Assembly: GCA_046330075.1 (NCBI GenBank)
Contig: JAXLTL010000001.1
Location: 930,341-994,340, forward strand
Direction of reading: 5' to 3'
From: Bacteroidia bacterium
GTDB taxonomy: Bacteria > Bacteroidota > Bacteroidia > AKYH767-A > OLB10
Length of the DNA: 64,000 bases
Numbering within the stretch: position 1 is the stretch's first letter; each line of letters opens with the position of its first letter. Shown here in pieces: positions 3,191 to 5,511 of the stretch. The notes beneath the pieces are model-generated. The model was not told where the DNA came from. It worked only from the letters and a program-made list of their open reading frames with translations, and did no database searches. The translations under genes and the position numbers were made by a program.

Positions 3191-3264
3191 GGGGAATTAG
3201 CTCAGCTGGCTAGAGCGCTTGCATGGCATGCAAGAGGTCACCGGTTCGACTCCGGTATTCTCCA
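3191..3264 (+). tRNA. tRNA-Ala (anticodon GGC)
   Basis: Cloverleaf: acceptor GGGGAAT/ATTCTCC, D-arm GCTCAGCTGGCTAGAGC, anticodon stem CTTGC/GCAAG with loop AT-GGC-AT, T-arm ACCGGTTCGACTCCGGT. No encoded CCA. Confidence 0.9.
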
Positions 3265-3266
3265 CA

Positions 3267-3300
3267 AAAGCCCTCCTATGCTTTAGCATCGGAGGGCTTT
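3267..3300 (+). terminator. hairpin immediately 3' of the tRNA (AAAGCCCTCC...GGAGGGCTTT)
   Basis: A 10-bp perfect stem followed by a T-containing tract. Its 3' arm is also the start of the downstream repeat unit. Confidence 0.4.
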
Positions 3301-3866
3301 GTCATTAAAAACATAGAGCGCTTGCATGCCCCGAAAGTTTTCGGGGAAGAGGTCACCGGGCGCTCTTCGCTCCGGATTGCTATCCACTAATTCTGCCCTC
3401 TGATCCTAAACTTATAGAGGGCTTTGTCATTAAAAACATAGAGCGCTTGCATGCCCCGAAAGTTTTCGGGGAAGAGGTCACCGGGCGCTCTTCGCTCCGA
3501 ATCACCATTCACTAATTCTGCCCTCCGATCCTAATCTTATTGAGGGCTTTGTCATTTATATAACATGTTTTACGTTTATTTCATTTACTCAGCACGTTTA
3601 GATCGATATTATGTCGGTTACACATCTGACCTTCAGAAGAGATTGAATGATCATAATTGTGGAATTTCTGCATTTACATCTAAGTCTAAGGACTGGGTAC
3701 TGGTGTATCAGGAAGCTTTTGAATCTCGAGAAGAGGCCGCTGAAAGAGAACGAATCATTAAAAAGAAAAAAAGCAGGAAGTATCTCGAATGGCTCATTGC
3801 AGGGAATAATTCATAGAGCGCTTGCATGCCCCGAAAGCTTTCGGGGAAGAGGTCACCCCTTCCGGC
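3294..3866 (+). repeat. tandem tRNA-Ala-derived repeats: two complete 125-bp units (3294-3418, 3419-3543) and a third unit split by the GIY-YIG ORF
   Basis: Each unit reads GGGCTTTGTCATT..CATAGAGCGCTTGCATG + hairpin CCCCGAAAG(T/C)TTTCGGGG + AAGAGGTCACCGG..ATTCTGCC. This mimics the D-stem, anticodon stem, T-arm and acceptor 3' of the adjacent tRNA-Ala, with the anticodon loop replaced by a new hairpin. Confidence 0.65.
3565..3816 (+). CDS. GIY-YIG nuclease family protein (URI domain, COG2827/UPF0213-like)
   Basis: N-terminal FYVYFIYSARLDRYYVGYTSDLQKRLNDHN matches the GIY-x10-YIG motif plus the conserved R and N. It is 83 aa. The ORF starts and stops exactly at repeat-unit junctions. Confidence 0.75.
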   Translation: MFYVYFIYSARLDRYYVGYTSDLQKRLNDHNCGISAFTSKSKDWVLVYQEAFESREEAAERERIIKKKKSRKYLEWLIAGNNS

Positions 3867-3987
3867 AGGCAGGCAGGATTTGTTACATTCTACATCGCCT
3901 CCTACAACCACTGATTTGCACGGTTGGTTATGATGGGTTATGTTCAAACATGACTGTTCATTTGAGGTGATTTTTTATCTTTGAAAG

Positions 3988-5511
3988 ATGGGTTACTTCC
4001 GCTACTTGTTTTTATTGATGATTTTGCTGCCGGGATCAGCAACAGCACAGTATAATGGTAATTACTGGTGTTTTGGGGATAGTGTTATGATAAATTGGAG
4101 TAACCCTAACAACCCTGTAATTGGGGCTTCTTCTTTTGATTTCCGAAACGGATCATCAAGTATTGCTGATTCTAACGGCATACTTTTATATACAGGTTAT
4201 AATTACAATGTTCAACCAGTCAGACCCTCGGTTTGGAACAAATATAATAATGATATAAATGATTCAATACGGATCAAAGGTGGCCTTTGGTATCATGCCA
4301 GTTTATTTGTACCTGATCCTGGAAATGATTCAATTATTTATTTATTTACAATTGGTGTTACTCAAGCTGAACAGTACGGTCTATACTACTCCAAAATCAA
4401 CTATAAAGCGAACAATGATTCAGGAATAGTCATTCAGAAAAATGTGCAGCTCAATAATTTTCCTGCCTTTGACGCACTCATGTCCGTGCGGCATGGTAAC
4501 GGTAGAGACTGGTGGGTGATATTTCAGAGATATACAACCAGCCTTACCCCATTTAATTCATTTTACCTTTTTCTTGTTTCGCCATCTGGTATTTCAGGTC
4601 CTGCAATTCAGAATATTGGTTCATTACGTAAAACCGGCGGCGGGCATCTGATTTTTAATAGTGATGGTACTCAATTTGTGCAATGCTCTTGGTTAGGTAT
4701 GATCGAACTCTACAATTTCGATCGCTGTACAGGTACCATCACTTCCACCATCCCTATTGAACAAGAACCATCTGTAGCTCCCTACCCACATTGGTATTCC
4801 AGCTGTGCTTTTTCACCAGATGATTCGAAATTATATGTAGCAGACTATTCGCAAACCACTTCACCATCTTATTTATGGCAATATGATTTATTAGCTACGA
4901 ATGTACCTGCGAGCAAAACCTTGATTGATTCATTTGTTGATCCTGATATGGGAATAGCGCAACTTCGCTTGGCCCCCGATAATAAAATATATTTATCAGC
5001 CTCAGATGAAGGTTTTCCATGGCCTTACCCAGATACCATCACCGCCTACACCACCATCAACAACAACCTCAGTGTTATCAACCACCCGGATAGCCTGGGT
5101 GCTGCCTGCGATTTTCAACCCTTCAGCTTTTCCCTCGGTGGTGCCCGCACCTACTACGGCCTTCCCAACAACCCCGATTACGAGTTGGGGGCTTGGGTAG
5201 GTAGTCCTTGTGATACGCTAACTGTGGGCCTCACCCCCGGCCCATCAGAGGAGAAGGGAGCATGGATGCAGGCATGGTATAACCACGAATGGAACATGAT
5301 TCACGTCAACGCGGCGCAGTTGAAAGGGAAGAAAGGTGTGTTGCGGTTGTTTGATATCGAAGGAAGAATCGTTTTCGAAAAACCGGCGGAGGTGGTGGCG
5401 GGTGGGTATTATACGACGGAGATTTATATGAATGAGTTGTCAAGTGGGGTTTATGTCGTCAACCTGGTCACGGATCGGGAGACGTTGTCGTTTAAGACTA
5501 GTAAATACTAG
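3988..5511 (+). CDS. secreted T9SS cargo protein, paralog A of a 3-member family (conserved N-terminal WCFGDS motif plus T9SS CTD)
   Basis: Signal peptide MGYFRYLFLLMILLPGSATAQ. The C-terminal ~115 aa are about 90% nucleotide-identical to 9287..10837 and 39123..40664, ending GVYVVNLVTDRETLSFKTSKY. Confidence 0.75.
   Translation: MGYFRYLFLLMILLPGSATAQYNGNYWCFGDSVMINWSNPNNPVIGASSFDFRNGSSSIADSNGILLYTGYNYNVQPVRPSVWNKYNNDINDSIRIKGGLWYHASLFVPDPGNDSIIYLFTIGVTQAEQYGLYYSKINYKANNDSGIVIQKNVQLNNFPAFDALMSVRHGNGRDWWVIFQRYTTSLTPFNSFYLFLVSPSGISGPAIQNIGSLRKTGGGHLIFNSDGTQFVQCSWLGMIELYNFDRCTGTITSTIPIEQEPSVAPYPHWYSSCAFSPDDSKLYVADYSQTTSPSYLWQYDLLATNVPASKTLIDSFVDPDMGIAQLRLAPDNKIYLSASDEGFPWPYPDTITAYTTINNNLSVINHPDSLGAACDFQPFSFSLGGARTYYGLPNNPDYELGAWVGSPCDTLTVGLTPGPSEEKGAWMQAWYNHEWNMIHVNAAQLKGKKGVLRLFDIEGRIVFEKPAEVVAGGYYTTEIYMNELSSGVYVVNLVTDRETLSFKTSKY

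Follow-up and report, generated by a model that had tools for sequence, protein, structure and literature searches.

A probable selfish insertion element at bacterial tRNA genes that pairs a minimal GIY-YIG nuclease with hairpin-substituted pseudo-tRNAs

Why would the gene of a very small nuclease lie among defective copies of a transfer RNA (tRNA) gene? The question is raised by a locus in a 64,000-nucleotide (nt) stretch of DNA from a member of the Bacteroidia (assembly GCA_046330075.1, contig JAXLTL010000001.1, positions 930,341 to 994,340), hereafter called the window, in which an intact tRNA-Ala(GGC) gene is followed by tRNA-derived units of 125 bp and by an 83-amino-acid (aa) GIY-YIG open reading frame (ORF) that splits the third unit. 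A first-pass annotation had described these components, all of which we found at the positions it gave, and had regarded nuclease gene and repeats as one selfish and mobile system tied to a tRNA gene. This view is borne out by the breadth of the association, which extends to about 140 loci: the repeats are not unique to the window, and the GIY-YIG family is found together with tRNA-like repeats elsewhere. The direction of events proposed in that annotation, insertion of the ORF into a pre-existing repeat unit, appears to be the reverse of the actual one, since the ORF-bearing module is the basic form across these loci. We conclude that the locus is probably a small selfish insertion element, measuring ~0.35 to 0.45 kb per unit and resident in a tRNA gene, which has apparently not been described so far and which occurs across Bacteroidota and relatives.

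The basic module consists of an intact tRNA, a terminator (A), the ORF, a pseudo-tRNA in which a hairpin (HP) stands in for an arm or loop, and the original terminator (B); a working tRNA is always kept beside the element. The window contains a partly decayed array of this kind, in which the intact tRNA is followed by two units that lack the ORF, by one ORF, and by a final unit that is truncated. Its features are as follows, where L135 is a syntenic locus from metagenomes.

3161-3190, plus strand: leader of the tRNA, promoter-proximal, the left edge of the module (26 of 30 positions are the same in L135; the DNA just upstream is 41% identical)
3191-3265, plus strand: intact tRNA-Ala(GGC), the host gene of the element (ARAGORN; Rfam RF00005, 64.3 bits)
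3267-3306, plus strand: terminator-like hairpin 1 (AAAGCCCTCCTATGCT/AGCATCGGAGGGCTTT), then the tail TTTGTCATT (16-nt inverted-repeat arms, I7, 94% complementary)
3307-3431, plus strand: pseudo-tRNA unit 1, without ORF (tRNA-derived; Tandem Repeats Finder, TRF, and core repeat)
3432-3556, plus strand: pseudo-tRNA unit 2, without ORF, a tandem copy of unit 1 (94% identity to it; HP at 3454-3471)
3565-3816, plus strand: GIY-YIG nuclease ORF, 83 aa (PF01541, E=1e-18)
3814-3885, plus strand: pseudo-tRNA unit 3, partial (TAGAGCGCTTGCATG, then HP at 3829-3846, then AAGAGGTCACC)

The tandem array detected by TRF spans 3292-3556 (period 125 bp, 2.1 copies, 94% matches), and CATAGAGCGCTTGCATGCCCCGAAAGTTTTCGGGGAAGAGGTCACC, a core of 46 nt, is present in three copies, at 3312, 3437, and 3812, with 100, 100, and 98% identity; a 24-nt part of this core has three matches, compared with 0.00 expected by chance. 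The units retain tRNA positions ~21-35 (TAGAGCGCTTGCATG) and ~42-54 (AAGAGGTCACCGG). The GCATGC of the anticodon loop and stem is swapped for an 18-nt hairpin, CCCCGAAAGTTTTCGGGG (CCCCGAA-N4-TTCGGGG, with a 7-bp stem, a 4-nt loop, and -10.5 kcal/mol), the T loop is swapped for GCGCTCTTCG, and the 3' strand of the acceptor stem is degenerate. In unit 1, the 3' half of the D stem and the 5' part of the anticodon stem take up 3314-3328, HP 3329-3346, and AAGAGGTCACCGG 3347-3359; the T-loop substitute and the degenerate acceptor strand follow, and then a second terminator-like hairpin at 3395-3425. In the intact tRNA, the anticodon arm CTTGCATGGCATGCAAG is a perfect 8+1+8 palindrome, as it is in 43 of 49 host tRNA-Ala(GGC) genes, and in units of the window's class HP starts exactly at the centre of this palindrome (CTTGCATG, then HP, then AAG). 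The first terminator-like hairpin, which L135 shares at 41 of 46 positions, is a putative terminator, and TACCTTTG in the leader (3168-3175) resembles what we take to be the Bacteroidota -7 box, TAnnTTTG, and may be the promoter.

The ORF is fitted closely into this arrangement. Its ATG lies 8 nt past 3556, where unit 3 diverges from units 1 and 2, and its stop codon TAG (3814-3816) is the TAG of the resumed CATAGAGCGC, and the last codons and the stop belong to sequence of tRNA origin (GGGAATAATTCATAG; the tRNA itself has GGGGAATTAGCTCAGCTGGCTAG). The 3' part of unit 3 is a degenerate remnant, CCTTCCGGCAGGCAGGCAGG (3858-3885), of CCCTGCCTGCCGGCAGGCAGGG, a perfect palindrome of 22 nt found in the T stem of L135. 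That the units might still fold as tRNAs, a possibility for which the first-pass annotation had suggested a covariance model, found no support: ARAGORN made no call for them and RF00005 did not match them even at E<=10. Since Rfam cmscan of the window region (E<=10) and of 10 related loci returned solely tRNA, apart from a Flavo-1 RNA (RF01705, 79.8 bits; L042, 1415-1490) that lies ~0.9 kb upstream of the Flavobacterium ajazii module and is probably unrelated, the units belong to no known RNA family. A group I or tRNA intron was likewise dismissed, as Rfam detected no intron RNA.

Within the 64-kb window there is no second copy of the ORF, and the exact form CCCGAA-N4-TTCGGG occurs in the three units only (0.13 expected). 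We also considered whether the hairpin form is exclusive to the units; this holds for that exact form and fails for other YCCCG...CGGGR hairpins, which are found in intergenic DNA at 11543-11558, 36673-36690, 40857-40874, and 41077-41093. Among these other intergenic hairpins is CCCGATAGCTATCGGG, a variant found in pseudo-tRNA-Lys units of other loci, and small GC hairpins may form a wider repeat class in this genome. As a further observation on the window units, GCGCTCT, the T-loop replacement (3361-3367), is the exact complement of AGAGCGC at the start of the unit (3314-3320), in unit 2 as well, and the predicted fold is a long helix tipped by HP, with one uncompensated mismatch in L135. In metagenome contigs of the same species, the number of ORF-less units varies (1, 2, or at least 3), although assembly collapse may account for part of this variation.

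How widespread is the module? In a survey starting from the ORF, which used contigs of one genome per species and the narrower of two profiles (A2, as A1 was too diverse), we retrieved 80 loci from Chitinophagales, Sphingobacteriales, Flavobacteriales, Cytophagales, Ignavibacteria, Marinimicrobia, and Fidelibacterota. An intact tRNA on the same strand lies 7-250 nt upstream of the ORF in 55 of the 80 loci and just downstream in 4; most of the other 21 are cut by a contig end, and the rest have only a 3' piece of the tRNA before the ORF or lie inside an array. The host tRNA is mostly Ala-GGC, with Lys-TTT, Lys-CTT, Asp-GTC, Val-TAC, and Arg-TCT also represented. On its 3' side, essentially every ORF is followed by a copy of its own genome's tRNA with an arm or loop swapped for a hairpin. 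In 94 of 109 ORF copies, the start of a canonical hairpin falls within -35 to +117 nt of the stop codon (modes at +5 and +12/13), and most of the remaining 15 have variant hairpins, such as CTCCGAA..TTCGGAG. Homologues often end in EWLISSAG, where SSAG and the stop (AGC TCA GCT GGC TAG) are D-arm sequence of the tRNA (AGCTCAGCTGGCTAG). When metagenomes were scanned with CCCGAANNNNTTCGGGRAAGAGGT alone, that is, starting from the hairpin, 66 loci were found, comprising 62 pseudo-tRNA-Ala loci and 4 chance matches in GC-rich genes. An adjacent GIY-YIG ORF is present in 49 of these 62 loci, 11 are cut by contig ends, and two (L135 and L156) are truly without an ORF.

The dominant form across clades is tRNA, ORF, and pseudo-tRNA with no spare units. 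Two to three whole or partial tandem copies of the ORF, with a period of 340-400 bp, are present in 23 of the 80 loci, Pedobacter sp. MW01-1-1 has 3 units, and L150 combines four upstream pseudo-units and an intact tRNA with four units of ORF plus hairpin; ORF-less units sit between tRNA and ORF in L028, L050, L087, and L088. Over the 3' part of the pseudo-copy, identity to the resident tRNA has a median of 100%, versus 82% to the tRNAs of other loci (37 tRNA-Ala loci). Upstream pseudo-units stop at the T loop, and some units outside the window pass as tRNA (38-41 bits in L067 and L070). The idea that the tRNA's own terminator is always duplicated with the unit had to be abandoned, as the 40 nt beyond the pseudo-copy match it in only ~22% of loci, and most often the two terminators differ.

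Several smaller features accompany these arrays. A motif, (A)AGTTCTT(W), stands 15-30 nt upstream of tRNA copies that follow an upstream pseudo-unit in distantly related genomes (e.g., L012 at 2362, L040 at 1840, L058 at 2345, and L157, L091, L107, and L154). Some pseudo-tRNA units contain extra hairpin inserts, namely, the 22-nt palindrome in the T stem mentioned above and a long T-loop hairpin, TCCCGTCTGATGTAATCTGACGGGA (L135, reoriented, 6390-6780). In a pseudo-tRNA-Arg of L090 (2100-2215), the two strands of the D-loop stem TCCCGA...TCGGGA are separated by ~90 nt rich in A/T, which gives the impression of an enlarged or invaded hairpin loop, and past the Pedobacter array of L037 (4050-5100) there is a ~773-bp repeat with the hairpins ATCCCGAGCATTCGGGAT and ATCCCGAGACCTTCGGGAT and no Rfam match. 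Runs of N in or beside arrays (L018, ~2830-2900; L040, 2017-2116; L080, ~2350-2450), together with the many ORF loci at contig ends, suggest that the arrays break assemblies.

Does the module move? To answer this, we turned to Flavobacterium, where orthologous loci fetched via mtgA homologues have the order enoyl-CoA hydratase gene, promoter, tRNA-Ala(GGC), terminator B, mtgA. Six of these genomes (L159 to L164) are empty, the tRNA being directly followed by terminator B, with no ORF, no hairpin, and no repeats. In L058 and L076 the order is tRNA, terminator A, ORF, pseudo-tRNA, terminator B; L065 has three units, and L157 lacks the ORF but has an intact tRNA preceded by a decayed pseudo-unit. 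What a filled site has in addition to an empty one is terminator A, the ORF, D-arm-like sequence, HP, and tRNA positions 45-76, and this insert is thus flanked by a 32-nt direct repeat of the 3' part of the tRNA. When L058 is compared with L076, the ~480-nt tract that starts at the tRNA and ends with terminator B shows 98% identity, the flanks show only 80-86%, and identity drops to 66-88% on either side of the tract; the flanks of L058 are 89-91% identical to those of the empty L161 to L163. Given that the tract is more alike than its flanks, it was acquired at the same tRNA site by recent horizontal transfer or by conversion. Judged from these sites and alignments, the element is a mobile insertion specific to a tRNA gene.

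The tRNA-Ala(GGC) gene is also the landing site of larger integrase-type islands. In L158 (3241-3480), an integrase gene abuts the remaining last 11 nt of the tRNA beside terminator B, and in L041, L056, L064, L073, and L078 (~2380-2450) only the 3' half of the tRNA, from the anticodon loop onwards (CTGGCAGGCAAGAGG...), precedes the GIY-YIG ORF, which looks like an attR scar. Such cases would be expected if the tRNA pieces were scars left by integrase-type islands and the GIY-YIG gene a passenger or leftover of them, an explanation to which we give almost no credence: integrases occur only in separate, larger insertions and never inside the units, the duplicated part often begins at the D arm or acceptor stem, att sites show neither hairpin substitutions nor tandem units, and ORF and hairpin are linked in ~140 loci. 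Islands of this type resemble the element in using a tRNA gene as their insertion site, in regenerating a complete tRNA there, and in the direct repeat of the tRNA 3' part that results. The element differs from them in having no integrase, in its size of ~0.4 kb per unit, in a duplication that may include the D arm, in the hairpin substitution, and in units that hold the GIY-YIG ORF only.

Which came first, the repeats or the ORF? The first-pass annotation had taken the 125-bp tRNA-like repeats for a homing target and the ORF for a precise insertion into one of them, and the coincidence of ORF and unit boundaries in the window, as well as the existence of ORF-less units there and in L028, L050, L087, and L088, would agree with this. 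The empty Flavobacterium sites, which consist of tRNA plus terminator with zero repeats, point instead to the tRNA gene itself as the real target, and the dominant form, as noted, has no spare units. The relative L135 bears on the ORF-less state. It is syntenic with the window, the upstream BNR/type IX secretion system (T9SS) gene being 69.7% and the upstream spacer 41% identical, and the two loci share ~96% identity over a tract that opens ~25 nt ahead of the tRNA and takes in terminator 1, unit 1, and terminator 2. At the position of the window's ORF, L135 has GAGGGCTTTGTCATT-AA-CATTAAAAAGAAAAA-TAA-AGAGCGCTTGCATG, in which the 15-mer CATTAAAAAGAAAAA corresponds to window positions 3756-3770 (codons IIKKKK), is colinear with them, and is unique in the 64 kb. 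An ORF-less unit of the kind that the annotation had wanted to see thus exists, yet with its 15-nt ORF remnant it is a deletion derivative rather than an unoccupied target. Repeats that preceded the ORF are therefore very improbable, and this reading is largely refuted. Units 1 and 2 of the window may have arisen by unit duplication, by ORF loss, or by both. A clear ORF-deletion scar was sought in these two units as well; their junction is merely A/T-rich, and the only convincing scar is that in the L135 orthologue of unit 3.

What kind of nuclease does the element encode? The PF01541 match covers residues 1-73, and Y5, Y16, G18, R26, H30, E62, and K66 are invariant among 24 homologues, with Y5 and Y16 representing the tyrosines of GIY and YIG. 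In the AlphaFold2 (AF2) model (predicted local distance difference test, pLDDT, 92.5), the order of elements is strand-strand-helix-strand-helix-helix; the protein hence has what characterizes the GIY-YIG superfamily, namely, the GIY and YIG motifs, the conserved arginine, the metal-binding glutamate, and the alpha/beta fold. Foldseek matched the model to UPF0213, Slx1, I-TevI, and the N-terminal part of UvrC (UvrC-N). Profile searches of the PDB returned 1ZG2 (BH0048; 7e-14), 1YWL (EF2693; 1e-10), and Slx1 (6e-8), and structural superposition gave template modelling (TM) scores of 0.66-0.68 and a root mean square deviation (rmsd) of 1.4-2.6 Å for Slx1, the catalytic domain of I-TevI ranking after it. 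The C-terminal PHD/RING-type zinc finger of Slx1 is not present, the 83 aa being the nuclease core only. From sequence and model, we predict a minimal nuclease of the Slx1/UPF0213 clade, a bare catalytic core that is a relative and not an orthologue of Slx1. NCBIfam had no match for the protein, PADLOC gave only a marginal restriction endonuclease (REase) match and no known toxin-antitoxin or defence family, PHROGs gave only weak "homing endonuclease" matches, and a scan of 2.9 million viral contigs found no relatives.

Because the Slx1/UPF0213 clade comprises structure-specific nucleases, the protein could be a domesticated host factor, involved, for example, in processing cruciforms or R-loops where a palindromic tRNA gene is heavily transcribed, with the pseudo-tRNAs as neutral recombination debris. 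A chromosomal gene that is missing from viral contigs and is inherited with conserved synteny within Flavobacterium would suit such a role. We consider it distinctly unlikely, given that close relatives with empty sites do without the ORF, that the element bears the signature of horizontal transfer, and that ORFs are often lost or decayed; moreover, the sequence of HP is conserved, and hence the pseudo-tRNAs are not neutral debris.

The copies of the hairpin were compared and located in linear tRNA coordinates. The consensus is T-CCCGAA-N4-TTCGGG-A, and the stem covaries: pair 5 is A-T in 126 copies, C-G in 23, G-C in 6, T-A in 2, G-T in 7, and T-G in 4, and the outermost pair is T-A in 125 and C-G in 26. 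Most loops read AGCT, AGCA, or TGCT, and their lengths range from 3 to 8 nt. The hairpin replaces the centre of the anticodon loop (class 35->42, to which the window belongs), the whole anticodon arm (27->45), the D loop (19->26 and 12/13->17-21), the T loop (56/57->63), or the whole T arm (50->66); in a whole-arm swap, an 18-nt HP stands exactly in place of a 17-nt arm. These position classes follow the protein clades in a neighbour-joining tree, in which Chitinophagaceae and Ferruginibacter are in two different clades. Among the non-coding sequences, HP alone is conserved in every clade, against a protein identity that has fallen to ~50%. In units with two hairpins (L018, L019, L027, L037, L063, and L087), the loops and inner stems differ and the base, TCCCG...CGGGA, is the same, and the base therefore looks selected rather than merely inherited. 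A duplex site for a protein dimer was considered and rejected, since a loop of varying length, the presence of G-T pairs, and covariation in the stem point rather to a fold of a single strand.

Could the hairpin-bearing units then be functional RNAs that work with the nuclease, the arrays reflecting selection for RNA dosage? We regard this alternative, already raised in the first-pass annotation and the main rival of the selfish-element reading, as a real if minority possibility, which is also compatible with mobility; the RNA could possibly act as a 3'-untranslated-region stabilizer or autoregulator of the ORF mRNA, as a type III-like antitoxin RNA, or as a tRNA-scaffolded handle or guide. 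Conservation of HP alone among the non-coding sequences is in its favour, as are the covariation, G-T tolerance, and 3- to 8-nt loops, although G-T exceeds A-C by only ~11 to 3 where detection bias plays no part, in copies that are not independent of one another. The whole-arm swaps (27->45 and 50->66) keep the cloverleaf geometry and some units score 38-41 bits as tRNA; many others cannot fold in a tRNA-like manner: coding sequence has taken the place of the 5' acceptor strand (L067 retains 4 of 7 pairs), the T loop is where upstream units break off, and no tRNA model matches the units of the window. HP lies 0-50 nt past almost every stop codon, and in the tRNA-Asp clade of Marinimicrobia and Fidelibacterota the unit consists of promoter, T-arm-swapped tRNA, terminator, and ORF, which is a type III toxin-antitoxin layout; no known toxin-antitoxin or defence family is matched, however. 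Likewise, the ORF-less unit 1 with its terminators is kept at ~96% between the window and L135, where the flanking gene is at 70% and the spacer at 41%, but the extra helix AGAGCGC/GCGCTCT of the window units has an uncompensated mismatch in L135.

More tentatively still, HP might be no scar but a specific partner of the mini-nuclease, the two forming a minimal nuclease-hairpin system. In one version, the protein would recognize the TCCCG...CGGGA stem, as DNA or RNA, and "write" HP into those arms of tRNA genes that form hairpins, a programmed swapping of arms which would disable extra copies and spread by repair; in another, a tRNA-scaffolded hairpin RNA would guide or restrain the nuclease. 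We know of no mechanism that yields tRNA arms replaced at an exact base by one conserved hairpin.

Returning to the selfish element, the reading that we favour, we envisage the following cycle. The ORF, lacking a promoter of its own, would be expressed by read-through from the tRNA promoter. The nuclease would break the DNA of the tRNA gene, the probable sites being arms that can form hairpins, for instance the palindromic anticodon arm of tRNA-Ala(GGC), and homologous repair off the element-bearing copy, a step demonstrated for SegB, would carry the cassette into alleles that lack it once DNA has been transferred. The same repair process would expand and contract the tandem arrays, in parallel to what is seen with phage SegB, and the HP-substituted tRNA copies would serve as non-functional homology arms that are presumably resistant to the nuclease. 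The preference for tRNA-Ala(GGC) possibly results from its perfectly palindromic anticodon arm. Precise loss by recombination between the direct repeats must be easy, and it probably adds to the patchy distribution.

A number of points weigh against this scenario. The 83-aa core has no DNA-binding module with which to recognize a long site, the 2.9 million viral contigs gave no relative that would point to a vector, and an element-bearing genome keeps an intact tRNA that is presumably cleavable. No tRNA segment is disrupted in every unit (L048 and L053 have a D-loop HP only, L070 a T-arm swap only, and still others HP in the anticodon arm only), and this defeats a simple immunity to a single sequence-specific cut, unless each clade has its own target. 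The conserved stem base, in addition, argues for a sequence-specific function of HP beyond the model. Finally, patchy presence could reflect frequent precise loss via the direct repeats instead of gain; loss alone, however, would not explain 98% identity in the element next to 80-86% in the flanks.

SegB, a protein of ~220 aa with a DNA-binding part, is the closest analogue. It is a free-standing phage GIY-YIG homing endonuclease in the tRNA cluster of T4/T6 (PMC2330249), and in T6 it cleaves within tRNA genes at the motif RAWTSGAAC, which by our own reverse-complementing is close to the reverse complement of the T-loop box (PMC13096335). It drives the tandem amplification of a 718-bp unit of tRNA-Tyr and segB, for which nuclease activity and UvsX/UvsY are needed, and the amplification junction is a microhomology that joins the 5' end of the tRNA with the 3' end of segB (PMC13096335). 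Both systems have a GIY-YIG gene among tRNA genes and the same junction of ORF 3' end and tRNA 5' end, and this junction, the tandem units, and the breakpoints at tRNA loops suggest that the same logic applies. Like Seg-type genes, the element lies outside any intron or intein beside a tRNA, shows presence/absence polymorphism, and is more alike than its flanks; the separate DNA-binding domain of that type is missing. SegB, moreover, is a phage protein, whereas the protein of the element has 83 aa, belongs to the Slx1/UPF0213 clade, and is chromosomal in bacteria of the Fibrobacteres-Chlorobi-Bacteroidetes (FCB) group, and neither a conserved hairpin nor arm-swapped pseudo-tRNAs are described for SegB in the passages covered.

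Other systems share single traits with the element. The Slx1/UPF0213 proteins (E. coli YhbQ, B. subtilis YazA, 1ZG2, and 1YWL) are the best matches in sequence and structure and have the URI/GIY-YIG core in common with it. To our knowledge, yhbQ and yazA are not linked to tRNA genes, and the two solved bacterial UPF0213 proteins (1ZG2 and 1YWL) were deposited as hypothetical proteins. Slx1, a structure-selective nuclease of branched DNA in the Slx1/YhbQ/YazA lineage (PMC7017083), has a zinc finger and the partner Slx4, and the element's protein has neither. I-TevI and other intron-encoded GIY-YIG homing endonucleases have the same catalytic fold (matches to 1LN0/1MK0) and the selfish logic of copying by repair; unlike them, the element is free-standing, with no intron or intein (no Rfam match) and no DNA-binding domain. 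In REP/RAYT, IS200/IS605 TnpB, and type III ToxIN systems, a small protein gene is tightly linked to a hairpin or repeat, as it is here; the RNA-coding sequence of the TnpB type can overlap the 3' end of the ORF, and the type III layout is repeats, terminator, ORF. Their protein families (HUH, RuvC, and ToxN) differ from GIY-YIG, and the element does not qualify as a type III toxin-antitoxin system, which is defined by a ToxN/AbiEii-type endoribonuclease toxin with processed RNA repeats upstream: PADLOC gave nothing beyond the marginal REase match, and the likeness in layout is confined to the tRNA-Asp clade.

In the surroundings of the element, the flanking genes (381-3074 and 3988-5511) bear type IX secretion C-terminal sorting domains, and a 443-aa DDE transposase ORF (5682-7013; PF01609, 1.7e-22) lies 1.9 kb downstream. 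Farther away, the motif GGCGCTTGCGTCCYGAGCGAAGCCTCAGGGC occurs twice near 36590-36660, and a tandem array with a C/A/T-rich unit of ~41 nt (catcccccatatcatcacccctatcaatca...) occupies 36720-36960, directly after the end of a gene.

What does the element add to the biology of these bacteria? Our search of the full-text literature retrieved no description of the system, only the SegB analogue and a line on Slx1/YhbQ/YazA in a review. Free-standing selfish GIY-YIG nuclease genes at tRNA genes are a kind already known, whereas a minimal Slx1-type nuclease, a chromosomal distribution throughout the FCB group, and pseudo-tRNAs with hairpin-swapped arms are unprecedented. The element would account for the pseudo-tRNA calls beside tRNA-Ala(GGC) ("tRNA-Ser," "tRNA-Stop," and "tRNA-???"), and the smallest GIY-YIG proteins, an orphan family, gain a concrete biological context. 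The parasitism of tRNA genes and the nuclease-driven segmental amplification that were demonstrated only this year, for phage SegB, may have a widespread chromosomal counterpart that spans Bacteroidota, Ignavibacteria, Marinimicrobia, and Fidelibacterota. If the hairpin were indeed the partner of the nuclease, this would be the first function for a UPF0213/Slx1-like bacterial protein and would define a new type of mobile element, one that targets structure and not sequence. Furthermore, if the nuclease recognizes a DNA structure, such as the 17-bp palindromic anticodon arm, or the hairpin as a handle, it would represent an extremely small targeting module and a possible tool.

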